This document shows positions 1 to 25,037 of a stretch of DNA of 25,037 nt, piece after piece; positions within the stretch are counted from its first letter, which is position 1, and each line of letters opens with the position of its first letter. The translations under genes were made by a program, and so were the position numbers. Origin of the DNA: a virus; UHGV virus genome UHGV-0332389; one strand, written 5' to 3'. The notes under the pieces were generated by a model. That model had not been told where the DNA came from. It searched no databases and saw only the letters and a list, made by a program, of their open reading frames with translations.

Positions 1-101
1 AGCATTAATCTTTAATCAATTTTTTACGACAATACTACTTTTATTGATAAAATTGCAACAAGTTGCTGTTGTTTTATTTTGTACACAAAGTGTCTTTAAC
101 T

Positions 102-656
102 TTATTTATCCCCTGCAGGAAACCTCTTATACAAAGTTGACACACCAACATCATAGATAATCGCCACCTTCTGGCGAGGAATGCCTGATGCAATTAATCG
201 CCCGGCCTGCGCCCATTGTTCTAGTGTAAGTTTGGGACGACGTCCCCCAATTCGTCCCTGTGCGCGAGCAGCTTCCAGTCCAGCTTTTGTTCGTTCAACA
301 ATCAGTTCTCGTTCCATTTCAGCCAGGGCACCCATCACATGAAAGAAAAAACGCCCCATCGGTGTGCTGGTATCAATAGCATCCGTCAGGCTGCGAAAAT
401 TAACGCCACGTTCGCGCAACTCCTCAACCAGAATGACCAGATGCCGCATACTACGCCCCAGCCGATCCAGCTTCCAGACAACCAGAGTATCACCTGCCGA
501 TAATGTCCTGAGCAGTTTTTTCAGTCCCGGCCTTTCGGACTTTGTACCGCTTATCTTGTCTTCAAAAATCAGCTCGCATCCTGCACAGTTCAGCGCATTA
601 CGTTGTAGATCTGTGTTCTGGTCATTTGTTGACACACGTACATAACCAATAAGCAT
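102..656 (-). CDS. pin: Serine recombinase, DNA invertase of the Pin/Gin/Hin/Cin family
   Basis: Translation MLIGYVRVSTNDQNTDLQ...GDTLVVWKLDRLGRS...VGVSTLYKRFPAGDK has the N-terminal catalytic serine motif and C-terminal HTH typical of Pin/Gin invertases. The ORF track starts 12 codons upstream, but the internal ATG at 656 has a GGGAGA Shine-Dalgarno about 7 nt upstream. Confidence 0.9.
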   Translation of the reverse strand: MLIGYVRVSTNDQNTDLQRNALNCAGCELIFEDKISGTKSERPGLKKLLRTLSAGDTLVVWKLDRLGRSMRHLVILVEELRERGVNFRSLTDAIDTSTPMGRFFFHVMGALAEMERELIVERTKAGLEAARAQGRIGGRRPKLTLEQWAQAGRLIASGIPRQKVAIIYDVGVSTLYKRFPAGDK

Positions 657-710
657 GGTAGATCTCCCTGACAAAAGCAGGAATGATGCCATTTGCTCGT
701 TATTTCTGCA

Positions 711-736
711 TTTTCATAAACGTTGGTTTGGGAGAA
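711..736. other. Left crossover site for the invertase (hix/gix-like 26 bp site)
   Basis: TTTTCATAAACGTTGGTTTGGGAGAA; its reverse complement shares the first 14 bp, including the central AA dinucleotide, with the site at 2650-2675. The sites are in inverted orientation. Confidence 0.6.
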
Positions 737-1189
737 GGCTCTGCATTACCTGTTGGTGTCCCTGTTCCGTGGCCTTCAGCCACTCCGCCAACAGGCTGGC
801 TGAAATGCAATGGTGCAGCTTTTTCTGCTGAAGAATACCCGGAACTGGCAAAGGCTTATCCGACAAATAAATTGCCTGATTTACGTGGTGAGTTTATTCG
901 CGGCTGGGATGACGGGCGCGGGGTTGACTCTGGACGAGGTTTGTTGACGGCGCAGGCGGAAACAAAGATAACTAACCACCACGGCAATGGCGGTAACGCT
1001 GATGATATTTCGGCTGGTGTCTCCGGTTCACCTCCCAAAAACTTTGTCAGAAACGCGGATTCGGCAGTTAATGCTGGTTCTGGTTTTACCGCTTTTGGCT
1101 CTGGAAATTTGACAATGAATGGTGTTACTTCTTATTTCGGTGTCCGTCCACGCAACATCGCATTTAACTACATTGTGAGGGCTGCATAA
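737..1189 (+). CDS. Silent alternative tail-fibre C-terminal cassette (variable part, promoterless in this orientation)
   Basis: ORF 683-1189 encodes ...GSALPVGVPVPWPSATPPTGWLKCNGAAFSAEEYPELAKAYP...LPDLRGEFIRGWDDGRGVD, resembling the receptor-binding C-terminus of Mu S-type fibres. The first about 18 codons of the tracked ORF span the crossover site and lie outside the segment, so the tracked start is not real. After inversion this would fuse to the constant N-terminus at 2676-2952. Confidence 0.6.
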   Translation, partial: GSALPVGVPVPWPSATPPTGWLKCNGAAFSAEEYPELAKAYPTNKLPDLRGEFIRGWDDGRGVDSGRGLLTAQAETKITNHHGNGGNADDISAGVSGSPPKNFVRNADSAVNAGSGFTAFGSGNLTMNGVTSYFGVRPRNIAFNYIVRAA

Positions 1190-1791
1190 TGGATAGCGCT
1201 GTATTAAATAGCGAGTTTATTGCCACGAAGGCGGGGGATATTACTGTCTATAATTATGATGGTGAAACACGGGAATATATTTCCATATCAACTGAATATC
1301 TTGCCGTTGGTGTCGGCATTCCGGCATGTTCCTGTTTAGATGCTCCAGGCGCATACAAAGCTGGTTATGCAATCTGCCGTTCTGCAGATTTTAAGTCATG
1401 GGAATATGTGCCAGACCATCGCGGTGAAATCGTCTTTAGCACCGAAACAGGAGAATCAAAAGAAATCACAGCTCCGGGTGATTACCCTAATAATACAACC
1501 ACTATCGCCCCATTAACGCCATACGATAAATGGGATGGTGAGAAATGGGTGACGGATACTGAGGCACAGCATAGCGCCGCAGTAGACGCGGCAGAAGCAC
1601 AGCGCCAGTCACTGATTGATGCTGCAATGGCTTCCATTAGTCTGATTCAGCTGAAATTACAGGCCGGACGGAAACTGACGCAGGCAGAAACAACCCGGCT
1701 TAACGCTGTGCTGGATTACATTGACGCGGTGACGGCAACAGATACCAGCACCGCGCCGAATGTCATCTGGCCTGAACTGCCGGAGGCGTAG
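1189..1791 (+). CDS. Tail fibre assembly protein (alternative copy, Tfa/U'-like), paired with the silent fibre cassette
   Basis: 200 aa ORF immediately following the alternative fibre cassette; C-terminus ...NVIWPELPEA parallels the ...DIEWPTPPAVQAR ending of the convergent Tfa copy. Confidence 0.75.
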   Translation: MDSAVLNSEFIATKAGDITVYNYDGETREYISISTEYLAVGVGIPACSCLDAPGAYKAGYAICRSADFKSWEYVPDHRGEIVFSTETGESKEITAPGDYPNNTTTIAPLTPYDKWDGEKWVTDTEAQHSAAVDAAEAQRQSLIDAAMASISLIQLKLQAGRKLTQAETTRLNAVLDYIDAVTATDTSTAPNVIWPELPEA

Positions 1792-2206
1792 GCCATTCAA
1801 TATCTGGAGCACTGGAGGGATCAACCAGTTCCAGTGCGTCCAGATAATCCAGCCATAAATTATATTGCTCCAGCTCGTTACCTTTCAGACGACCAATAGC
1901 AGCTTTGCCAGGCCACTGATGGGTGTTGATGTAGGTATTGGCTTCTGAAACCAAAGATATTTTTTTCATTTCAGCCATCAACACCTCATCCTCTTTTGAA
2001 GGCGGTGGGGAATTAATCCATATTGGCCGTCCTGAACTGTCAGCGCCAATTTCTTTCCCTTCTGGATGCAGCCCAAGAAATTGCTCATATGTTTCTCGGG
2101 TAATTTCAATAACATCATCTGGAAGCGTTCCCGCATCCTCATATTCTGGAAACAATTCTTGTAGATAAAAACTTTTACTTCCGGGTGAAAAGAATACTGA
2201 GTTCAT
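1763..2206 (-). CDS. Tail fibre assembly protein (expressed copy, Tfa/U-like)
   Basis: 147 aa ORF directly downstream of the tail fibre gene on the same strand; its 3' end overlaps the convergent copy by 29 bp. Confidence 0.75.
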   Translation of the reverse strand: MNSVFFSPGSKSFYLQELFPEYEDAGTLPDDVIEITRETYEQFLGLHPEGKEIGADSSGRPIWINSPPPSKEDEVLMAEMKKISLVSEANTYINTHQWPGKAAIGRLKGNELEQYNLWLDYLDALELVDPSSAPDIEWPTPPAVQAR

Positions 2207-2208
2207 TC

Positions 2209-2952
2209 TTACCGTCCAATGATTAACGCTGAGACGCTGGTATCTGAAGGAAAGGCTGCATTCAGTGGTTTGTCGACTTTGAATACAATCGTATTATTCC
2301 CCCGGACAGCGGCAAAAGAACAAACCGCCGTCGCGTATGAACCTGTAATATTACTGGATACACCGCCATAAGCTGTTGTTGATACCAGAGGGATAACGCC
2401 CAGCACCTTATTAGGAAATACAAAGGGCAATGTGGCTGTGGCAATATAAGACTTATTAGAACCTGTAATGGCATAAGCATTATCAGTCATTCCATTCATC
2501 GCCACTGGACCGCTTATACTTACAGTAACCATCTGAGTGATTAGCCCGTCAGGTTGACGAATCACAAAATTTCCATTGCCACCAGTAACCGTCCAGAAAG
2601 ACATATCAGGGATTTGGTTTTCCCCGTTGCCCACATTCCGTTTTGCCGCTTCTCCCAAACCAAGGTTTTCGAGAGCCGTTTTCACCGTGCCATCCGATTT
2701 GATATCGCCAAACGGATTCTTGCGGCTTAACAGCAGCGCGCGAAGCGCGGTAAGTAGCTGGTCGTGCCGCCCCTTCTCCAGGCTGGCACCGGACGCCTCC
2801 ACAACGCTGCAAAGCTCCTCCTGCAACATGTCAAAGTAGTCATCATCCAGATCGGTGGCAGGCGTGCCGGTCTGGGGGTTACCACGGGTAAAACCGTTCT
2901 TACCCGCGCCGAACTTATCCTTCTGCGCGGTTTTCGTGTCTATACGATGCAT
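2209..2952 (-). CDS. Tail fibre protein (Mu S-like): constant N-terminal part plus the currently selected variable C-terminal part
   Basis: 247 aa, [48 protein letters not shown]...; GGAG Shine-Dalgarno 7 nt upstream; the crossover site at 2650-2675 falls at codons for ENLGLGE. Confidence 0.8.
2650..2675. other. Right crossover site for the invertase (hix/gix-like), inside the tail fibre gene
   Basis: TTCTCCCAAACCAAGGTTTTCGAGAG; matches the remembered hixL sequence TTCTTGAAAACCAAGGTTTTTGATAA at most positions, including the central AA. Confidence 0.65.
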
Positions 2953-2955
2953 GGA

Positions 2956-3540
2956 TTACTCCGGATATTTAAAAATTACGTAGGTATGCGACGGGCAGAG
3001 TTTGTTAAGCACACATTCGACAACTGTGTCGCCCCAGATACGCAGTGCGGAATCACAGGGATCGCCACATGTCATCCAGGTGGTGTTGGTGGCGGCTGGC
3101 ATGTTGACCTGCCAGTAATACCGCCATTCCGGCGCATTCACTGCGTCAGTACAGGCCGATGAGCAGGTGAACGTGCTTTTGTCGTATCGCGTGATGGTGG
3201 CGTCTGGTCTGCCCAGGGCAGCAAGCTGTGCAAGGTAAAAATCCTCATTGATGCCGCCCGCCAGATTAACCTTCGCATCCAGCCGTTGCTGACGCTGACG
3301 AAGGGTCTGCGTTCCCGCCGGAATACATTCATCCGGCAGGCCGCACAGACGCTCCCAGCGGTTTATCAGTTCAGTGGTGGTGCGCGGATCCAGCTCCCGC
3401 ATCAGGGCATCCGCACGCTGATGAACGCGGGTTAATGACGGTGCCGCACCGGCAATCGCCGGATCGCTGGCTGACCACGCCGGACCGGGCGGCAACAGTG
3501 CCGATAACAGGCGGATGTAATCATCGTTTGTCACGTCCAT
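2956..3540 (-). CDS. Tail/baseplate protein, Mu gp48-like (YmfQ-like)
   Basis: 194 aa ORF between the baseplate J-like gene and the tail fibre gene; position and sequence recall the YmfQ/gp48 family. Confidence 0.65.
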
Positions 3541-4589
3541 GAAATCGTCCCCAGTACCGCCAGTTCGTTTTTCGCAATGGAGATATTGTCCACCGGTGCA
3601 AGCAACTGATGGCTGTATTCCCCGTTCGCACCGGAAATCGCCTCACTGATACGCGATACCTTCAGTTCTCCCTGCGGATAACCATCACGCAGCAGGAACG
3701 AACGCAACTCCGCGGTAATGGCAGCCCGTATTTCTGGTGTATCCGGCGTCACACGGATATGAAAATCCACCGTATGCGCCACCGGCCTGAACACATACAA
3801 ATCAGAGCCTGCCACCGGGGCCAGTGGCTCGATATGCAGCCTTGCCGCCGTTTCCGTTGATTCTTCCGGAATGGGATTAATCAGGTCGCTGCTGGCAATC
3901 ATCACACCGACAGTCCCCGTTCCCATCCAGTGTCGGTATGTCCATGCGCGGGTAATGCCGGGCACTTCTTTAGCCCAGACGACATAGTCCCCGTCAGCCC
4001 CGCCCTGAGGCGTCCAGTAATACCGCTCAATGACGCGGGCGCGCCACGTTTCCAGCTCTTCAGTATCAAATCCGCCTGTAAGGGTGTCAGCCACACCGGA
4101 AGACGGCAGACCATTCACCGGCGTGACCAGGATTAATGCCGTACCGTCGTCAGCGTTACCGACCGCACCTGCACTTGAGCAGGCGATCGGCACGCGCAGG
4201 ACACCACCGGAGCTGGTTGCATCGGCAGTTGCCGTGTACTGAACCAGGTCATCGCGCTGAATAACACTCCCGGCGGTCACCTTCAGGCCATCGCTGACAC
4301 CTTCCCAGCGCATATACCCGCTGGCAGCCGTGGCCCCCTTGCGCGGACACCGTTTCATCGCAGCATGTCGCGCCAGCCAGGACTCATCGCACAGGTCAGG
4401 CAGCATGTTCATTGCCAGATAATCGATGTACCCGTAAACCGTATGCAGCGCCGCCGCATACACCTTTGCCCGCACGTCTTCATCCATGCGCCGGAGCGTG
4501 TCGCTGACGTCCAGCCTGGCGAATAAATCGTTACGGAGCATACTGATATTTTCTGCCAGCGTCGGGCGCTGAAATTCACTGTCCGCCAT
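3531..4589 (-). CDS. Baseplate J-like protein (Mu gp47-like)
   Basis: 352 aa ORF in conserved Mu-type baseplate order; overlapping start/stop with neighbours. Confidence 0.8.
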
Positions 4590-5004
4590 GCGTTATCGCA
4601 CTCCACAGATCATCAAAAGAAATCATTACCGGTCCGTCACGACGCCAGAGAGTGATACTGTTACCCAGTTCATTAATCCCGGTGCGGCGGATATCCAGAT
4701 CAATACGGGACACCACGCCGTCATCAATCATCCATTGCAGGCATTCGCGGATATATCCCCTTACCGTCTGCACCAGCTGATTGGTCAGTTTGCTGCGCTG
4801 AAGCAGCCACAGTCGGGAGCCGTAACGGTCATTCTGTACCGCAGGCCAGGTATCCCCCCACCATCCCATCGGGACGTCGGCATTGTCATCAGGTTCAGCC
4901 CGCCGCCAGGTGAACAGGGAAATCACCACGGCACGGGTCAGCGGATCCAGCGGTGCGCTGGCGCAGGTGCGTTTACCGTTCACCGTCAGCCACAGTTCCA
5001 TCAT
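4576..5004 (-). CDS. Baseplate protein, Mu gp46-like
   Basis: 142 aa ORF at the conserved position between the spike and J-like genes. Confidence 0.7.
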   Translation of the reverse strand: MMELWLTVNGKRTCASAPLDPLTRAVVISLFTWRRAEPDDNADVPMGWWGDTWPAVQNDRYGSRLWLLQRSKLTNQLVQTVRGYIRECLQWMIDDGVVSRIDLDIRRTGINELGNSITLWRRDGPVMISFDDLWSAITHGGQ

Positions 5005-5549
5005 GCCTCCATCGCTTTATCAGGTTTGTCGGTGTTACTGCCCTGACCGTTCTCTCTGTGACGATGCCCGTTATAGGCAAGCCGCATCGCTGACATGGTG
5101 GTGCCGGTGGAGTCGCACAGGTCTTTCACCTGTCCGGTCACTTCCAGGTCCATTTCAAAACGAGCCTTAGGCGCATTGCGAAACGTGATTGTTTTACCTG
5201 CACCGTCCACCACGATCCCCTCCCGGGTCAGCGTCACGGACTGCCCCTGATCGTCATAGACAGCCACCTCCCCCGTATGCAGCCCTTTCAGGCGGTAGCG
5301 CCGGTCCGACACCGTAACAACCACCGCATGAGAACGGTCGCCATCCGGAAACAACACCACCGCTTCCGCACCGCTGTTTGCCCTTGCGGTAAAACCGTAG
5401 GGTTCAAGATGTTCAACCCCGGCTTTGGGTTCACCGGCAATCAGGGACACATCCACGGTCTGACATTTCGTGGCGGCACTGATGCTTTTCACCACTGCCC
5501 GCCCAATCAGGCCGAGAAGTTGTCGCTGCATGGCTTCAATCGTCCTCAT
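5001..5549 (-). CDS. Baseplate assembly / spike protein (Mu gp45-like, gpV-like)
   Basis: 182 aa ORF at conserved position; overlaps the stop of the upstream gene. Confidence 0.7.
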   Translation of the reverse strand: MRTIEAMQRQLLGLIGRAVVKSISAATKCQTVDVSLIAGEPKAGVEHLEPYGFTARANSGAEAVVLFPDGDRSHAVVVTVSDRRYRLKGLHTGEVAVYDDQGQSVTLTREGIVVDGAGKTITFRNAPKARFEMDLEVTGQVKDLCDSTGTTMSAMRLAYNGHRHRENGQGSNTDKPDKAMEA

Positions 5550-6628
5550 CAGAACGGGTCCTCCTGTACTCTGGCTTTTTTCTTTTTCCGCGCGCCGGGG
5601 TCTTCAGGTTCAGGCAGATAAGCATCAGGCGGGCCGACACGGATTTCCGTCAGGGTGCCGTTCTGGTCCTGAGTAAACGTGACTTCCGAAACAAGCAGTT
5701 CGGTATTGTCGAAACCACAGACCGGATCAAAGACAATCACCCGCTGGTTGGGCTGCCACAGCGTACCGTTACCCTGTCGCCAGCCCTGCACCACATAGGT
5801 GGTTTCATCCGTCCGCGCCGCCCGTTGCCGGGCTTCAAAGTCAGCACGCGCAATACAGCCTGCCCCCGTAGCCTGCCCTGTCTGCCTGATATACATCGGA
5901 CGGTAACGGGCAATAAATGCGTCCTCTGTGCGGGCCCGCAGCGCGGTGGTGGTGGCCTCACCGAAATCATCGTCGTTTCCGGCACGCTGCCCCGCCACCT
6001 GGTAAACAGAAAACCGCTCCCGGATACTCTTCTCCGTATCGCAGGAAAGGATGTTTTCCCCGAGTACCAGCGCGGTATGTGCCCGCGTTGAGCCAATACC
6101 GCCAATCACCAGCCTGCCGTGCGGGTCGTCGTAAGCCAGTGCCTGCTGCTGACCGAGTATTTTGTTGATTACCTCAATCACCGTTTCACCGTGATCAGGC
6201 TGAACATCAGGAATAACACCCGACGGCGCACCGCTGTTCACCACCTCAATGCCGAAAGGCGCAGCAAGCGCCTGCGCAATCTGTACCAGCGATCGTCCGT
6301 TAAACTGTGTCGGTTCGGCTGCACAGTCAATCAGGTCAGCGGTCAGACTGCGTCCGGCAATACCGGTGCTGACCGAACGGGCATCGTAACGAACGGGAGT
6401 CGCCTCCACCCAGCCGGTGATCACCAGCTCATCACCAATCAGCACTTCCACTTTTGAACCGTTTTTAATGCGCGGCTGAAGCGTGGTGATACCCTCATCT
6501 CCCGGCCACTGGCGAGTGATCTCCACACTGAAATCCCGCGCCAGCCGTTCAATACCGGCACCGATGCGCACCGATGTCCAGCCATTCCACTCCCGGCCAT
6601 TTACCCGTAGCGTGACATTGTCGTTCAT
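5549..6628 (-). CDS. Baseplate hub / tail protein, Mu gp44 (P)-like, P2 gpD-like
   Basis: 359 aa ORF with Lys-rich C-terminus (ARKKKKARVQEDPF); position downstream of the DNA circulation protein. Confidence 0.75.
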   Translation of the reverse strand: MNDNVTLRVNGREWNGWTSVRIGAGIERLARDFSVEITRQWPGDEGITTLQPRIKNGSKVEVLIGDELVITGWVEATPVRYDARSVSTGIAGRSLTADLIDCAAEPTQFNGRSLVQIAQALAAPFGIEVVNSGAPSGVIPDVQPDHGETVIEVINKILGQQQALAYDDPHGRLVIGGIGSTRAHTALVLGENILSCDTEKSIRERFSVYQVAGQRAGNDDDFGEATTTALRARTEDAFIARYRPMYIRQTGQATGAGCIARADFEARQRAARTDETTYVVQGWRQGNGTLWQPNQRVIVFDPVCGFDNTELLVSEVTFTQDQNGTLTEIRVGPPDAYLPEPEDPGARKKKKARVQEDPF

Positions 6629-8063: not shown

Positions 8064-8510
8064 ATGAAGAAATTATTAAAATGGATTTTATATATTTTCA
8101 TCGGGTTGGTGATTATTGGATATTTTGCAGGCAATAACGATAAAGGCTCTAATTCTTCATACTCATCCGATACGGAAGCTGCGGCACCGCAAAAAGAAAT
8201 CTACAACACTACTGCTCGACAGCTGTTTAAAGAGTATGAAGAAAATGAAGTCGCTACCGATGAACAGTTAAAAGGTAAATTAATCGCCGTTAGAGGTATC
8301 GTACAATCCATTGATAAGGACTTTACTGACTCTATAATTATTAAATTCAGAACTGAAAATGAATTCATGCCAGCAAGAATGGAGATGCAAGACTCTGAAA
8401 AATCAACAGCTGCTGCTCTTAAAAAAGGAGAACAAGTAACTGTTATTTGCGAAAAAATGTCCAGAATTGTCGGCTCCCCATCAGGCCGAAATTGCGTGTT
8501 CGCACAGTAA
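8064..8510 (+). CDS. Moron: membrane-anchored OB-fold-like protein of unknown function (resembles tRNA_anti-like / OB-fold putative lipoprotein family)
   Basis: 148 aa ORF on the opposite strand to all flanking tail genes, in a visibly AT-rich block; AAGGTGA Shine-Dalgarno 5 nt upstream of the ATG; N-terminal hydrophobic anchor MKKLLKWILYIFIGLVIIGYFAG followed by a soluble domain. Confidence 0.7.
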   Translation: MKKLLKWILYIFIGLVIIGYFAGNNDKGSNSSYSSDTEAAAPQKEIYNTTARQLFKEYEENEVATDEQLKGKLIAVRGIVQSIDKDFTDSIIIKFRTENEFMPARMEMQDSEKSTAAALKKGEQVTVICEKMSRIVGSPSGRNCVFAQ

Positions 8511-8542: not shown

Positions 8543-10375
8543 TTACCTAAATCTGGTGTACCCAACATCGTGATTAATATCAATGCCACTGGAACGTGTT
8601 TCCGTAACCCGCATACCTGGTGGCATATTCATAAATGAAACCTTGATCTCGCCATCAACTTTTGGCGCGATAGCTTTGTTAATCATGAAGGGATTCGAGC
8701 CTGTGGCATCGGAGGCGTTGTTTGCCTGAGCCGGATCCACCACCGGATAAGGAGTGTATCCCCGTGGCGGTATTCCCGTCCCATAAGCATCATAAGCACC
8801 CGCGCCCAACTGCGCCGAGTTAATGGCATCGACCGTGTCACCGGAACTGTCGGTAAACCATTCAATAATCGGCTTCAGCTTATCCCACATATCCTGAAAC
8901 CACTTAACAACCGGTCCCCAGTTATTGATCACCATCCCCAGCGGCGACCAGGCAAAAACCTTCTTCAGAAGTTCCCAACCTGCCTCAAAATAAGGACCAA
9001 TGGTTTCCCAGAGCTTCTTGAAATAAGGTCCGACAACATCCCAGTTAGTGATAATTAATCCCGCAGCCAGAGCAATCGCCGTCGCAATCATGCCAATCGG
9101 CGTCATCGACATAATCCTGCTGACAATACTGATGGCACTGCCCACGCCCATCAATCCCAGTTTCAGAATCGCAAGACCGGCAGCAAGCCCGACGACGCCG
9201 CGAATAACCCGGGGATTTTCATCCGCAAACTTCGTGAATTTCTCCCCCAACTCCCCCAGCCATTGTGTGATATTTTTAGCGTCACCAGAAAATGCGCCGC
9301 CAATAGCCGCAAGGCCGTTAGTTGCGGTCCCTGTCATTGCCTCCCACAGGTTGGACAGCGTACCAAGCTGTGCCTGAACACGTTTATTCAGGCTGGCCTG
9401 TTTATTCATCTTCTGCTGGATCTGATCGTAGCCATCCTTTCCTTTATCGATTAGTGCATTGACCACCTGAAGGGTTTCGGCATCATCACCAAATATTGCC
9501 TTAAGTACACCTGTTCGCTTAACGTCGGTCAGTTTTCGCAGCTTTGCCAGTTGCCTGAACATGTTATCAAGACCGCCAAAACTTCCTTTGCCGTCAGTAA
9601 AATCGAGCTGTACCCCGAGTTTCTGGCGGGCCATAACTTTATTAACGTCCCTGATTTTCTTAACGCTTAATCCGGACTGGATAACTTTTCGCAGGGCATT
9701 ACCTGCCGACTCCCCGTTCATCCCCATCTGATCCATCATGACGCTGATGGGGGCAAGGCTCTGTGCAGCCTGAAGACCATCCTTGTTCACCATCTTCAGA
9801 ACAGAACTGGTTTTAGTGAAGAAGGACAACATGTTGGTATCGTCAACGCCCAGATAAAACGCCTTCTGGATAGTGTCGAACAGCCCCATCATGTCTTCTG
9901 ACGCCGTTCCGGTAGCATCCTGCATCTTTGCAGCAAACTCAGCAGCCGCTTCCGGTGTTTTTTTCAGTTGTACCGCAAGATAAGCTGTCGCTTTACCCAC
10001 ACCACCCAGAATGTTTTCTGCCGGGATCCCCTGACGCACCAGCATCTGCATCATGTTCTGGAAATCAGCCGTTGTACCAGGTAGCTGGTTACCCAGGCCA
10101 ATAGCCAGTTTATTGATGTCCTGAAAGCTCTTTCCAACCTCGCCGTTCGCATCCATCATGGCGACTTTCAGCCCGGTGGCGGCGTTTTCCTGATCGGCAT
10201 AAGATTTCAGGGAAAGCGTCAGACCCGCTGCCAGTCCGCCACCAAGCGCCAGCCCACCCTGTGACGCTTCTTCCGCCTGGCGTTTAAATCCCCGGATTTT
10301 CTTTTGCATTTTCGACAGCGCGGGAGAAAGCCTGTCGACACCGGTGATCAACGCCTTAAGCTCAAATTCAGCCAT
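8543..10375 (-). CDS. Tail tape measure protein
   Basis: 610 aa ORF, helical and Gly/Ala-rich with hydrophobic central stretches, directly downstream of the tail assembly chaperone and its frameshift extension. Confidence 0.85.
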   Translation of the reverse strand: MAEFELKALITGVDRLSPALSKMQKKIRGFKRQAEEASQGGLALGGGLAAGLTLSLKSYADQENAATGLKVAMMDANGEVGKSFQDINKLAIGLGNQLPGTTADFQNMMQMLVRQGIPAENILGGVGKATAYLAVQLKKTPEAAAEFAAKMQDATGTASEDMMGLFDTIQKAFYLGVDDTNMLSFFTKTSSVLKMVNKDGLQAAQSLAPISVMMDQMGMNGESAGNALRKVIQSGLSVKKIRDVNKVMARQKLGVQLDFTDGKGSFGGLDNMFRQLAKLRKLTDVKRTGVLKAIFGDDAETLQVVNALIDKGKDGYDQIQQKMNKQASLNKRVQAQLGTLSNLWEAMTGTATNGLAAIGGAFSGDAKNITQWLGELGEKFTKFADENPRVIRGVVGLAAGLAILKLGLMGVGSAISIVSRIMSMTPIGMIATAIALAAGLIITNWDVVGPYFKKLWETIGPYFEAGWELLKKVFAWSPLGMVINNWGPVVKWFQDMWDKLKPIIEWFTDSSGDTVDAINSAQLGAGAYDAYGTGIPPRGYTPYPVVDPAQANNASDATGSNPFMINKAIAPKVDGEIKVSFMNMPPGMRVTETRSSGIDINHDVGYTRFR

Positions 10376-10550
10376 GTGTGCGTTTCTCCTGCTCTATCCT
10401 GTTTGCCTGACTGACCAGTAAGGGAATTTCACTGATCGGCATATTCAGCAATTCGAAAGGATTAATGCGCCAGTAGCTGGCGCAGTCAAAGAAGCGATCA
10501 GTGAGGTATTCAGCCGTCAGGCCTGGAGGAAAAAACCAGCCACAAGCCAC
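10368..10550 (-). CDS. Frameshift extension of the tail assembly chaperone (-1 frame; G-T / E-E'-like fusion product)
   Basis: ORF in the -1 frame overlapping the last codons of the chaperone gene; TTTTTTC slippery heptamer at the overlap; ends overlapping the tape measure start. Confidence 0.6.
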   Translation of the reverse strand: MACGWFFPPGLTAEYLTDRFFDCASYWRINPFELLNMPISEIPLLVSQANRIEQEKRTHG

Positions 10551-10786
10551 GCCGCTGCATTCAGGTCTGCCGGAGACATCTGGTCGACAGAGCTTTGCGG
10601 CACTTTCGCCAGCCGCACAATGTATTTCGACACCACATGCGCCAGAAGTTTGACTGACTCATCCTGATTCATCTGGTAGGGATACCCAAGCTCGCGGACA
10701 TCCTTCCCGGTGGGCTCATCAAACTCCAGTACGGAGAGTGTCTCGCCATGAGCAGTAATCGGTTTCTTTAACTCAAGCTCTTTCAT
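10517..10786 (-). CDS. Tail assembly chaperone
   Basis: 89 aa ORF between tail tube and tape measure, the canonical chaperone position; carries the slippery site near its 3' end. Confidence 0.75.
   Translation of the reverse strand: MKELELKKPITAHGETLSVLEFDEPTGKDVRELGYPYQMNQDESVKLLAHVVSKYIVRLAKVPQSSVDQMSPADLNAAAWLVAGFFLQA
10539..10545 (-). other. Programmed -1 ribosomal frameshift slippery site T_TTT_TTC
   Basis: Minus-strand sequence GCT GGT TTT TTC CTC CAG GCC TGA in the zero frame; a -1 slip reads TTT TTT CCT CCA GGC, continuing into ORF 10368-10550. Confidence 0.6.
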
Positions 10787-23387: not shown

Positions 23388-24194
23388 CTATTTCTTAATG
23401 ATGCTATTTAACATTTCTAATGCAAAAAGCAACATGGAGCTAATAAAATATAATATAACCGCACTGGCAATCGCTCCAATTATAGCCTGGACACTCCAGT
23501 GAAAGTAATTTTTACCATTAATAACAAACTTAACACTAGGAAACAAAAAGTCGATAAGCTTAATTATTAATGGAATAGCAAAGCTCCATAAGTTCGAAAA
23601 CAAAATAAAGATACAAATAAATGATAAAGCAAATGCACCATCGATTGATAGTTTTGGCGCCAGTTTTGAGGCTGTCCATAAGCTAAGCAAAAAGCCAACT
23701 GTCACACCTGAAATCTGGATACTTAACATAGTCCAAGCTGTTCTAAAAAATCTAAATTTATTTTTGCACTTGTTAAGTAAATCCTGAATCGTAATCCATA
23801 ACGAGTCAACCCACTCATTATCTTCCGATGCTACAATCATTGTGCTGCTATTTGAATTCCTCTCATCAATTCGTAGCTCCATCCAAGATCCATTCATCCT
23901 GTTAGACTGTCGACTTTGATAAGTTTCAATAGTAAAAATTATTTGATCAATCCTAGTGGCCTGTCTAAAGTATTTCACAAGCTCACCGATAGAATCAACT
24001 TTATATCCCTTACCATCGAACAAAATAAAAAAAACACATTGAGCACAAACTTCCCTACTTTCCTTTTGAGCTTGCTCATTCATTTTAACGCAGCGTTCGA
24101 CAATTGCCGTGCTTAAGCTAATCAAGCTATCTTCATTTATAGAAACACCTGAAATATTCTTGCTTCTGTAAAAATATGACACTTTCGATTCCAC
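23388..24194 (-). CDS. Accessory membrane protein of unknown function: N-terminal soluble domain of about 160 aa plus three C-terminal TM helices (candidate exclusion or abortive-infection effector)
   Basis: 268 aa ORF in a strongly AT-rich block; C-terminal hydrophobic segments WTMLSIQISGVTVGFLLSLW, FALSFICIFILFSNLWSFAIPLIIKLIDFLF, AIIGAIASAVILYFISSMLLFAL. The first in-frame start is GTG with no clear Shine-Dalgarno, so the start is uncertain. Confidence 0.5.
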   Translation of the reverse strand: MESKVSYFYRSKNISGVSINEDSLISLSTAIVERCVKMNEQAQKESREVCAQCVFFILFDGKGYKVDSIGELVKYFRQATRIDQIIFTIETYQSRQSNRMNGSWMELRIDERNSNSSTMIVASEDNEWVDSLWITIQDLLNKCKNKFRFFRTAWTMLSIQISGVTVGFLLSLWTASKLAPKLSIDGAFALSFICIFILFSNLWSFAIPLIIKLIDFLFPSVKFVINGKNYFHWSVQAIIGAIASAVILYFISSMLLFALEMLNSIIKK

Positions 24195-24359
24195 TCCGCA
24201 CCAGTCTCGATTTAGCGCAGGTTAACATAACCACTTCATTGGTAGAAGAAAAGAACTCTTCTTGTCAGAAAGCTACTGTGATATCCCTAAACCTGCAGAT
24301 GATACAGAACAAAATTTAAGCATCAATTGTAGGCGATTTTAAATTCACTTTACAGTTTA

Positions 24360-24377
24360 GGCTGCCAATTGGCAGCC
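24360..24377. promoter_or_regulatory. Perfect 18 bp palindrome between the two accessory genes (candidate operator)
   Basis: GGCTGCCAATTGGCAGCC, 15 bp downstream of the 89 aa gene stop; no U-tract on either strand. Confidence 0.4.
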
Positions 24378-24391
24378 GATTGAAGCAGAAA

Positions 24392-24661
24392 TCAATGAGT
24401 GCTCATCGATGAATTTTTTTCAGCGCCAATCTCACTCAAAAAAGCAAAACCTTTTGACGTTATCTCATTAGCAATCAATCCACCTTCGGCAGATTTGCTT
24501 CGTATAACATCGATAAAACCTATATCAGCAAGATCTGAAATAGCAAAATTAACCTCTTTTGCTGAGAGATGAGGTAATGATGCAGCCTGAATTCTAGAAT
24601 CCTTTGGCTGCAATTCATTCACTCGACGTAGTATTTCAAGATGGATAGAGGTCAGTTTCAT
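24392..24661 (-). CDS. Small helical protein, possible winged-helix DNA-binding regulator (first gene of accessory cassette)
   Basis: 89 aa ORF with AGGAG Shine-Dalgarno 7 nt upstream and an extended -10 promoter upstream; AT-rich. Confidence 0.6.
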   Translation of the reverse strand: MKLTSIHLEILRRVNELQPKDSRIQAASLPHLSAKEVNFAISDLADIGFIDVIRSKSAEGGLIANEITSKGFAFLSEIGAEKNSSMSTH

Positions 24662-24698
24662 AATGTTCTCCTGTTTTTAATGTTGTTTTACAGAAAAC

Positions 24699-24735
24699 AT
24701 TATAACACATTGATTTTGATGTAGATTGAATAGAA
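24699..24735 (-). promoter_or_regulatory. Sigma70-like promoter with extended -10 (TGTTATAAT) driving the accessory cassette
   Basis: Minus-strand TATAAT at 24699-24704 preceded by TGT; weak -35 region; located about 35 nt upstream of the 89 aa gene start. Confidence 0.4.
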
Positions 24736-24743
24736 AAAAACCA

Positions 24744-24766
24744 TAAAAAAACCTCGCAATAGCGAG
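24744..24766 (-). terminator. Rho-independent terminator (possible tR'-like late terminator) upstream of the accessory cassette
   Basis: Minus-strand CCTCGC-TATT-GCGAGG followed by TTTTTTT; about 110 nt downstream of the stop of the partial upstream gene. Confidence 0.55.
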
Positions 24767-24875
24767 GTCGTAAAAATCGTTCAACGATAGATACACAAGC
24801 CCCATCGTTGAGAAAATCTTATCCATATTTTTTGAGAAACACAAGCATTATGTCGTTATCTTCGGCGAAAATCGC

Positions 24876-25037
24876 TTATCTCGTCACCCTTCTCAATTGT
24901 GCTTCAGCGTAAGCTTCCTCCTGCCAGCACTTTGTAACCAGTTTATCAATGACATCTGCATATCCTTTGTACCACTGATAATCCGTCAGGTCTGGTACCA
25001 GCTTCTGGACATGAAGCCGCGCCAGTGTGGTTGGTAA
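24876..25037 (-). CDS. 3' end of a gene running into the window from the right (partial; identity unknown, possibly a late regulator)
   Basis: Open minus-strand frame from the window edge to TAA at 24876-24878; C-terminal 53 aa ...DYQWYKGYADVIDKLVTKCWQEEAYAEAQLRRVTR. Confidence 0.35.
   Translation of the reverse strand, partial: LPTTLARLHVQKLVPDLTDYQWYKGYADVIDKLVTKCWQEEAYAEAQLRRVTR

Follow-up and report, generated by a model that had tools for sequence, protein, structure and literature searches.

Positions 102–2952 of the window (the whole 25,037-nucleotide stretch of DNA that was analysed) make up the P-inversion module of a prophage of E. coli that belongs to the e14/SfV family. With high confidence we assign the region to the pinE/P-segment switch, a site-specific inversion system, of such an e14-family element (SfV-like, with a Mu-type tail). 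The structural parts expected of a Din-family (Hin/Gin/Cin/Pin) tail-fibre switch are all intact here, the enhancer as a candidate recognised from its sequence (Table 1). The switch is already known, and the sole novelties are tip alleles unlike those of K-12 and an intact virion module.

Since the 1980s the e14 Pin/P-segment switch has counted as a textbook example from the Hin/Gin/Cin/Pin group; the system was reportedly described by Plasterk and van de Putte in 1985. It was looked at again in 2014 (PMC4272514) and in 2025 (PMC12529663). The earlier of these studies found e14 inversion in clonal MG1655 cultures by whole-genome sequencing and PCR (PMC4272514), and the later one found that the e14 P segment is inverted by PinE and by PinQ alike (PMC12529663).

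Table 1. Coordinates of the features of the inversion module and the adjoining baseplate genes
Feature	Positions	Strand	Size	Remarks
pinE, serine DNA invertase	102–656	-	184 aa	Pfam Resolvase PF00239 (1e-51) and HTH_7 PF02796 (4e-14)
Candidate recombinational enhancer	567–638			Inside the 5' end of pin; proposed from homology to the cin enhancer and the Fis motif
Orphan ORF leader	683–724	+		Not part of the invertible segment; MMPFARYFCIFINV; ATG codons at 683 and 686, closely preceded by AGGA
Site L (pixL)	711–736		26 bp	Core TT at 723–724; identical to the K-12 e14 site
Invertible P segment	724–2662		1,939 bp	Counted core base to core base; in-silico flip keeps frame
Alternative fibre tip, StfE type (collar)	725–1189	+		Pfam Collar (1e-15); PHROG 523 'tail collar fiber protein' (5e-71)
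tfaE, chaperone of the StfE-type tip	1189–1791	+	200 aa	Pfam Caudo_TAP (2e-32)
tfaP-like chaperone of the expressed tip	1763–2206	-	147 aa	Pfam Caudo_TAP (4e-27)
Expressed fibre tip, StfP position	2209–2661	-	~147 aa	Distant gp53-like knob; PHROG 12714, function unknown (6e-48)
Site R (pixR)	2650–2675		26 bp	Within the fibre gene; core AA at 2662–2663; identical to the K-12 e14 site
Constant fibre N-terminus	2664–2952	-	~97–100 aa	Outside the segment; ends ALENL; PHROG 1396 'tail fiber protein' (1e-59, residues 1–102)
Mu-type baseplate genes gp48 (ymfQ), gp47 (J), gp46, gp45, gp44	2956–6628	-		Pfam

Identity and prophage context

The first point to note is that the sites, the invertase, the fibre constant region and the flanking genes all agree with K-12 e14. 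YmfQ is identical to its K-12 e14 counterpart at 191 of 194 residues, and in the KE58 locus, which is 99.4% identical to the window, mcrA and an icd fragment adjoin the element. A sequence-only reading of the same DNA had placed the invertase in the Pin family; the family is right, but the label is too broad, the system being the e14 pinE/P segment itself. At this locus the RefSeq annotation already includes pinE and tfaE as well as the fibre genes.

The gene order is like that of K-12 e14 (ymfQ-stfP-tfaP-tfaE-stfE'-pinE-mcrA). The K-12 segment is reported as 1,797 bp, however, and its StfP as 209 aa, against 1,939 bp and 247 aa here, and the tip in the StfP position of the window is an unrelated-looking allele. 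K-12 e14 has also lost most of its head and tail genes and carries the pseudogenes aaaE, beeE and jayE, whereas the morphogenetic module of the window is complete, with terminase, portal, protease, capsid, connector, sheath, tube, tape-measure and baseplate genes. The region is 96–98% identical to phages SfII, SfI, SfV and vB_EcoM-689R6. The baseplate genes immediately precede the fibre gene within one operon, in an order that matches Mu gp47-gp48-S-U-U'-S'-gin. Scanning the entire window against Rfam and for tRNA genes gave no hits.

Fibre tips and chaperones

In the window orientation the whole fibre gene occupies 2209–2952 on the minus strand and encodes 247 aa. As in the Mu G and P1 C segments, a constant N-terminus joins either of two tips, each with its own Tfa. 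Open reading frames and Pfam domains bear out the layout proposed by the sequence-only reading, in which a fibre tip with its Tfa faces a convergent second Tfa and an orphan cassette; the tfaE and tfaP-like genes overlap by 29 bp. Within residues 1–101, the window's protein and K-12 StfP differ at one residue. TfaE is identical to K-12 TfaE at 182 of 200 positions, and the tfaP-like protein resembles K-12 TfaP in its C-terminal part, its N-terminal half being different.

The two C-terminal cassettes had been called clearly different, and so they are: no significant similarity exists between the two fibre tips (BLASTP E = 0.028), which are thus not diverged duplicates. The two Tfa proteins are similar over their C-terminal 80 aa only, where they share 31% identity.

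It had been suggested that the tips be aligned to fibres of known receptor specificity, but an assignment of receptors by similarity failed. For the collar tip, whose middle part is unlike the K-12 StfE allele, relatives were readily found: it shares 55–62% identity with the tips of P2 H, HK106 Stf and SKA5, and has matches in 1,055 phage records. These relatives (P2, HK106 and P1-like tips) are too diverse for a receptor to be deduced from them. The expressed tip matches Pfam Gp53-like_C at E = 8e-4, below the cut-off, where the K-12 StfP tip scores 8e-16, and its matches among phage records are seven in number, all weak and partial. This gp53-like tip is a poorly represented allele, almost without relatives among sequenced phages. 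As neither tip can be assigned a receptor by similarity, a change of host range between the two orientations rests on the analogy with Mu and P1.

Inversion in silico and in public genomes

When positions 724–2662 were inverted in silico the reading frame was kept, giving a 251-aa fibre ORF. This product is 100% identical to RefSeq WP_000554691.1, found in strains TW10722 and 165. TW10722 carries the 1,939-bp segment of the window reverse-complemented, with one mismatch, and its annotated fibre is the flipped product residue for residue.

Two strain pairs show the same exchange almost in isolation. Apart from an exact inversion of the 1,905 bp between the repeats, IrN and Cn5 do not differ anywhere along 9,495 bp, and 23CRST027 and 23CRST031 differ only by the inversion and one SNP. 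In the latter pair a polymorphism in the inner half-site travels with the segment, so that the crossover is confined to the 10 bp TTGGTTTGGG, equivalent to positions 723–732 and 2654–2663 of the window and including the core. The expectation that inversion would swap the tip together with its chaperone agrees both with the conserved frame and with the occurrence of the two orientations in nature.

Junction counts over 5,426 complete E. coli genomes gave ∼944 in the window orientation and ∼516 in the opposite one, a split which agrees with the 33% inverted found elsewhere (PMC12529663). When the whole 3.6 kb was matched, the numbers of genomes in the two orientations were 14 and 29. These natural inversions belong to the element family, as seen in related strains, and the window itself is a single assembled orientation. 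What is shown is that the parts of the switch are present and intact, that the frame survives the flip, and that both orientations occur in nature and have their breakpoints at the sites.

Orphan cassette and a possible role in host defence

The collar cassette, which is not joined to the fibre in the window orientation, had been described as silent and promoterless. No convincing promoter emerged: a promoter and terminator scan of positions 1–3600 found none serving pin or the orphan cassette, and of the six promoter-like sites, a number not above the 4.7 expected from shuffles, none is adjacent to the orphan ORF. Silence is a deduction, and it has to be set against an in-frame ATG with AGGA just upstream, lying outside the segment. 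RefSeq annotates a CDS at 686–1189 as 'phage tail protein'.

Such a start, together with the RefSeq call, is compatible with a different account of the switch, namely that its main selected role in the lysogen is host defence, with a free tip fused to the orphan leader masking receptors and blocking the adsorption of other phages. Inversion would then determine which of the two tips the leader beside pin carries. There is a precedent in K-12, where inversion of the P segment protects against T2 and where the analogous orphan chimera StfE2, consisting of the leader and a gp53-like tip, blocks T2 adsorption when overproduced (PMC12529663). However, the K-12 evidence comes largely from overproduction, the tip allele in the window differs from K-12 StfP, and the count of promoter-like sites leaves no outstanding promoter reading into the orphan ORF. 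Moreover, the full set of virion genes is kept here, unlike in K-12 e14, and the classical fibre role thus has a substrate. On balance, defence as the main selected role seems to us unlikely.

Defence and host-range functions are not mutually exclusive. In a combined form, the tip that is off the fibre would be joined to the 17-residue leader and act as a free receptor-masking protein in the lysogen, and the rare gp53-like tip would give it a specificity unlike that of K-12 StfE2; we hold such a dual switch to be distinctly improbable. The reading that we prefer is that of a Din-family tail-fibre switch, and it is this that the remaining evidence concerns.

Invertase and candidate enhancer

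Residues 1–181 of Pin align with the Gin structures 3UJ3 and 4M6F (E = 1e-93), and the structure of the Hin DNA-binding domain, 1HCR, is matched at 4e-7. The protein is identical to K-12 PinE at 177 of its 184 positions (96%), to Cin at 150 (82%) and to Gin at 143 (78%). It has the size class of the Din-family recombinases (∼180–195 aa) and their two domains, an N-terminal catalytic resolvase domain with the Ser9/10 nucleophile and an HTH at the C-terminus. As the sequence-only reading had it, pin (102–656, minus strand) is situated directly outside site L (711–736). A longer, 196-aa invertase ORF starting at 692 was rejected as an over-extension. The start at 656 is preferred because it has a GGGAG Shine–Dalgarno sequence, aligns with Gin from residue 1 and agrees with the RefSeq call, made at the same coordinates in strain KE58.

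Inactivating mutations in the invertase had been named as something that would tell against a working switch. None was found at the catalytic residues, Y5, R7, S9, D64, R65 and R68 all being conserved; H106 and M114 have the wild-type residue, and full length is kept. There is, however, a substitution, S93A: K-12 Pin, IrN Pin, Gin and Cin all have Ser at this position, so that of the five invertases compared the window's protein alone departs from it. Nor was a sigma-70-like promoter for pin detected, at the scan threshold, between its start codon and site L. Together with the single orientation visible in the window, these two observations might be taken to indicate a frozen relic in this strain, in which Pin or its expression is defective and the fibre is locked into carrying the gp53-like tip. 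Against this, strain KE58 and phage record ON470584.1 both have an unchanged copy of this Pin protein, the catalytic residues are all conserved in a full-length protein, and TW10722 has the same P segment flipped with one mismatch in 1,939 nt. Other Pin-like invertases of the host could also act in trans, as PinQ does on e14 (PMC12529663). We regard a frozen fibre as very unlikely, and continue to read the region as an intact switch.

The 5' end of pin probably contains an enhancer of the Cin/Gin type. Positions 567–638 are the positional equivalent of the segment annotated in P1 as 'enhancer of Cin-mediated C-segment inversion' (cin nt 19–90), with 55 of 72 nucleotides identical to cin and 54 of 72 to gin. 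A degenerate Fis motif, GNNYRNNWNNYRNNC, is matched at 620–634 and 572–586, that is, at pin nt 23–37 and 71–85, and the same two positions are matched in gin and cin. The centres of these two Fis-like sites are 48 bp apart, which is the spacing of the Fis sites in the cis-acting enhancers of the Din family, and the nearer one lies ∼97 bp from the core of site L. Homology and the degenerate motif together point to a candidate enhancer with two Fis-like sites.

Recombination sites

Site R reads TTCTCCCAAACCAAGGTTTTCGAGAG and the reverse complement of site L reads TTCTCCCAAACCAACGTTTATGAAAA. The two sites are in inverted orientation and are equal at 21 of 26 positions; the 14 bp in common that had been counted from the sequence is correct as the longest unbroken identical run, but not as the total. 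Their coordinates and their partnership as inverted repeats proved right, the top inverted repeat in 600–2800 having arms at 718–737 and 2649–2668 that are complementary at 19 of 20 positions. Each site has a 2-bp core flanked by two imperfect half-sites of 12 bp. The cores, TT and AA, are complementary-identical, permitting religation, and correspond to the central AA that the two sites had been said to share.

The likeness of site R to gix sites was also confirmed, the pix sites aligning with gixL/R and cixL/R in a common architecture, TTnTCnnAAACC-NN-GGTTTnnGAnAA. Site R is found in the fibre ORF at ...ALENLGLGE..., which includes the codons ENLGLGE named beforehand, and site L in the orphan cassette at ...NVGLGEGSALP..., in accordance with the predicted beginning VGLGEGSALP. 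A 20-nt site pattern allowing up to three mismatches had two matches in the 25-kb window, with none expected from 100 shuffles; at the same tolerance there were no extra recombination sites or cassettes of the shufflon or Min kind in the window.

Since a GLGE peptide is encoded by the inner half-sites of both cassettes, the repeat could in principle be a chance or coding similarity between two fibre genes with no role in recombination, but the probability of this is practically nil: it is ruled out by the inversions in IrN/Cn5 and 23CRST027/031, which break exactly at the sites, and by the inverted segment of TW10722, and it is further opposed by identity that extends to the outer, non-coding half of site L, by the zero pattern matches expected by chance and by the fact that these are the experimentally defined e14 sites (PMC12529663).

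Proposed mechanism

Dependence on Fis and an enhancer, cleavage at the core and an effect on host range are features that we carry over, by analogy, from the Hin/Gin/Cin family. The late operon on the minus strand passes through the baseplate genes into the short tail-fibre gene, of which the first ∼100 codons are constant and the remainder is inside the 1,939-bp invertible segment. Pin, as a small serine recombinase, would bind the two 26-bp sites at 711–736 and 2650–2675 and, with Fis bound to the enhancer in the 5' end of pin, would form an invertasome. Both sites would then be cut at the central 2-bp core and the strands exchanged, flipping the segment. In the window orientation the 247-aa fibre has the gp53-like tip, with the matching Tfa gene behind it; in the opposite orientation the same N-terminus is in frame with the collar-type tip, giving a fibre of 251 aa with TfaE next in line. 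The virions of a lysogen would then be a mixture with two receptor specificities.

Relation to other inversion systems

The Mu G segment has the same layout (gp44-45-46-47-48, a fibre with constant and variable parts, U, U', S'v and an invertase reading away from the segment), and the Gin system is alike in the architecture of its sites and in having its enhancer where the candidate enhancer of pin lies, within the 5' part of the gene. The differences lie in scale and content. Mu S has 504 aa, the G segment is 3 kb long and both tips are of the collar or S type, whereas the fibre here has only ∼250 aa, with a gp53-like knob as one of its two tips. The window also differs in its modules for head and lysis, which are HK97/lambdoid-like and not Mu-like. 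P1 has 26-bp cix sites with the same half-site consensus and the enhancer annotated in cin. However, cin reads towards its segment and cixL overlaps the cin 3' end, whereas here it is the 5' end of pin that faces the segment, and the P1 C segment is 4.2 kb in length against 1,939 bp. The Min system of p15B has multiple sites and cassettes, in contrast to the two sites found here. Salmonella Hin/hix shares the recombinase family and the 26-bp sites, and its Fis-dependent enhancer and mechanism are like those proposed here; Hin flips a promoter, not coding cassettes, and hin lies inside its own segment.

As the Pin/P-segment switch of e14 has long been known, its value as a discovery is small. 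The near-isogenic pairs of public genomes are natural experiments that confirm the inversion and map the crossover without bench work. The classical host-range role, which is impossible in the defective K-12 e14, is directly testable in this intact e14/SfV-type prophage. Were the dual-switch reading to be true, inversion would toggle the host range of the phage and the exclusion spectrum of the lysogen together.

Organisation of the switch

The feature is the already known Pin/P-segment switch of the e14 prophage; its tip alleles are not those of K-12, and the prophage that carries it appears complete. The sequence-only reading had recognised a tail-fibre switch here; that observation is confirmed, and its interpretation is supported by the sites, the genes, a frame-keeping flip and natural inversions. 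Its two distinct C-terminal cassettes with convergent Tfa genes, and pin directly outside site L, agree with the layout in the table and with comparison of the tips, which show no relationship to each other. The two Tfa proteins are alike only over the C-terminal ∼80 residues and, as the 3′ ends of their genes overlap, the conserved C-terminal peptides are encoded on opposite strands of one DNA stretch. The K-12 e14 overlap is also 29 bp. The locus is 99.4% identical to that of E. coli KE58. Over positions 1–5000, GC content falls from 55–61% in the baseplate genes to 42–52% within the invertible segment, shifting near site R, a drop in composition which suggests that the cassettes are a horizontally exchanged module.

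Features of the switch and of the remaining window
Feature	Position	Strand	Remarks
pinE	102-656	-	184 aa; Pfam Resolvase and HTH_7; same coordinates as RefSeq pinE in KE58 locus
Spacer	54 bp		between pinE and site L
Detached cassette ORF	683-1189	+	14-residue leader outside segment; RefSeq 'phage tail protein'
Site L	711-736		reverse complement TTCTCCCAAACCAACGTTTATGAAAA
Collar-type fibre tip	to 1189	+	
tfaE	1189-1791	+	
Second tfa	1763-2206	-	convergent with tfaE
Overlap of tfa 3′ ends	1763-1791		29 bp
Fibre gene	2209-2952	-	247 aa; contains site R
Site R	2650-2675		TTCTCCCAAACCAAGGTTTTCGAGAG
gp48 (ymfQ), gp47 (J), gp46, gp45, gp44	directly upstream of fibre gene	-	Mu-type baseplate genes
Antisense ORF in tail operon	8064-8510	+	148 aa; between DNA-circularisation and tape-measure genes
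Two small ORFs	10368-10786	-	89 and 60 aa; between tube and tape-measure genes
AT-rich right end	23388-25037		
Hydrophobic ORF	23388-24194	-	268 aa; many hydrophobic stretches
Small ORF	24392-24661	-	89 aa
Tail/connector genes	remaining window		DNA-circularisation protein, tape measure, tube, sheath, tail terminator, connectors
Head/packaging genes	remaining window		HK97-type capsid, protease, portal, large and small terminase subunits
Other genes	remaining window		HNH endonuclease, lysis genes

An inverted-repeat search and a pattern scan both showed the proposed site positions to be exact. The pair is the top inverted repeat within 600–2800 (arms 718–737 and 2649–2668, 19/20), and the 20-nt site pattern, allowing up to three mismatches, occurs at only two places in the 25-kb window, with none expected from shuffles. 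The 14 bp said to be common to the sites holds as the longest unbroken run (positions 1–14) but not as the total, since 21 of the 26 positions agree between site R and reverse-complemented site L. The core dinucleotides are TT at 723–724 (site L) and AA at 2662–2663 (site R, within fibre codons ALENLGLGE). Neither site differs from its K-12 e14 counterpart, and their architecture agrees with the gix and cix sites taken from the Mu and P1 records.

Evidence for inversion

When the P segment (724–2662) is flipped in silico the frame is kept, and the resulting 251-aa fibre is 100% identical to WP_000554691.1, the annotated fibre of strains TW10722 and 165. In TW10722 the 1,939-bp segment is present as its reverse complement, with one mismatch, between flanks that are 2–12% diverged; a near-identical segment between more diverged flanks agrees with cassette exchange.

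The evidence for inversion comes from other strains, the source strain being seen in one assembly and one orientation. The near-clonal strains IrN and Cn5 (4,818,806 and 4,818,820 bp) are identical over 9,495 bp save for the exact reverse complement of 1,905 bp between the repeats. A second near-clonal pair, 23CRST027 and 23CRST031, differs over 9,470 bp by the inversion and one SNP. In these strains a single base distinguishes the two inner half-sites and moves with the segment, so that exchange is confined to TTGGTTTGGG, equivalent to window positions 723–732 and 2654–2663, an interval whose outer limit is the base adjoining the core dinucleotide.

A survey of 5,426 complete E. coli genomes likewise turned up both orientations. 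An unbroken match to all 3.6 kb occurred in 14 genomes in the window orientation and in 29 flipped; the junction of the pin side with the collar cassette was spanned in 944 genomes, and that of the fibre constant region with the same cassette in 516. The flipped share by junction, ∼35%, agrees with the 33% inverted reported (PMC12529663), and both orientations are present in clonal MG1655 cultures (PMC4272514).

Invertase and mechanism

Inactivating mutations, which the earlier reading had considered, are not apparent in the full alignment of Pin with Gin. Residues 1–181 align with crystallised Gin (3UJ3, 4M6F; E=1e-93), identity to Gin is 78% and to Cin 82%, the residues Y5, R7, S9, D64, R65 and R68 are all conserved, and positions 106 and 114 carry the wild-type H and M. 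K-12 Pin differs at seven positions, and all of these changes but S93A also occur in Gin, Cin or another Pin allele. KE58 and phage record ON470584.1 encode the identical protein.

The Din-family inversion mechanism is established for Hin, Gin and Cin, and what is observed of the window switch is consistent with it. The pin stretch at window positions 567–638, equivalent to the enhancer annotated at cin nt 19–90 in the P1 record, is 76% identical to cin. Degenerate Fis motif matches lie at pin nt 23–37 and 71–85, as in gin and cin; 48 bp separate their centres, the nearer one lying ∼97 bp away from the core of site L. Inversion at these sites would be Fis-dependent, with strands presumably cleaved at the site core. 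Gene order and invertase orientation match those of Mu (gp47-gp48-S-U-U'-S'-gin, gin reading away from the segment), whereas in P1 cin reads towards it.

Relation to e14 and the virion module

The genes are arranged as in K-12 e14 (ymfQ-stfP-tfaP-tfaE-stfE'-pinE-mcrA), with identities of 177/184 for Pin, 191/194 for YmfQ and 182/200 for TfaE, and one residue different in the fibre constant region. The KE58 element neighbours mcrA and a duplicated icd fragment, the e14 attachment site. The tips are not those of K-12. The StfP-position fibre, carrying the currently attached tip, has 247 aa against 209 in K-12, its longer tip matches Gp53-like_C below threshold (E=8e-4, against 8e-16 for K-12 StfP), and the N-terminal half of its Tfa is unlike K-12. 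In the StfE-type tip the collar domain is retained, but the middle part is unlike K-12.

Which gene follows pinE depends on the strain. The KE58 and K-12 loci have mcrA there; IrN, Cn5, 23CRST027/031 and TW10722 have a LEM-3-like GIY-YIG nuclease gene. Also close by are a retron Ec67-type RT in 23CRST027/031 and an AAA ATPase and HNH gene in strain 165. The pin-side end of the prophage looks like a variable defence-gene slot. Positions 1–2309 of ON470584.1 (phage vB_EcoM-689R6, partial genome) open with Pin, 100% identical to the window's, and mcrA, then jump to a fibre gene, the window match restarting at 2649, at site R. The P segment is missing from this record, whose assembly may have broken there.

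In K-12 e14, terminase, portal and J are annotated pseudogene remnants, whereas the full set of virion genes in the window makes the fibre part of a complete virion module. The part of the window beyond the switch and baseplate genes is 96–98% identical to the Shigella/E. coli myoviruses SfII, SfI, SfV and vB_EcoM-689R6. The 148-aa antisense ORF is probably a moron, given its matches to the Pfam tRNA_anti-like OB fold (3e-19) and PHROG 8545, 'superinfection exclusion Sie-like' (1.5e-49). The interval holding the 89- and 60-aa ORFs is the usual place of a tail assembly chaperone pair with a programmed frameshift. The 268-aa ORF had no Pfam match, its only match being PHROG 30208 (unknown function); the right-end ORFs, beside the lysis genes, are possibly accessory or moron cargo.

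The detached cassette and possible roles

The detached cassette had been called promoterless and silent. A promoter search gave no convincing candidate for this cassette or for pin, and translation signals are not strictly lacking: the RefSeq-annotated ORF has an ATG at 683/686, preceded closely by AGGA, outside the invertible segment. Similarity comparison of both tips with phage tips allowed no receptor to be assigned to either. By analogy with related switches, inversion would change host range. A defence role for the orphan product, which need not exclude a host-range switch, is a live alternative, because a 2025 study (PMC12529663) reports that the analogous K-12 chimera StfE2 blocks T2 adsorption when overproduced, and that the K-12 e14 segment can also be flipped by PinQ, the invertase of a different prophage.
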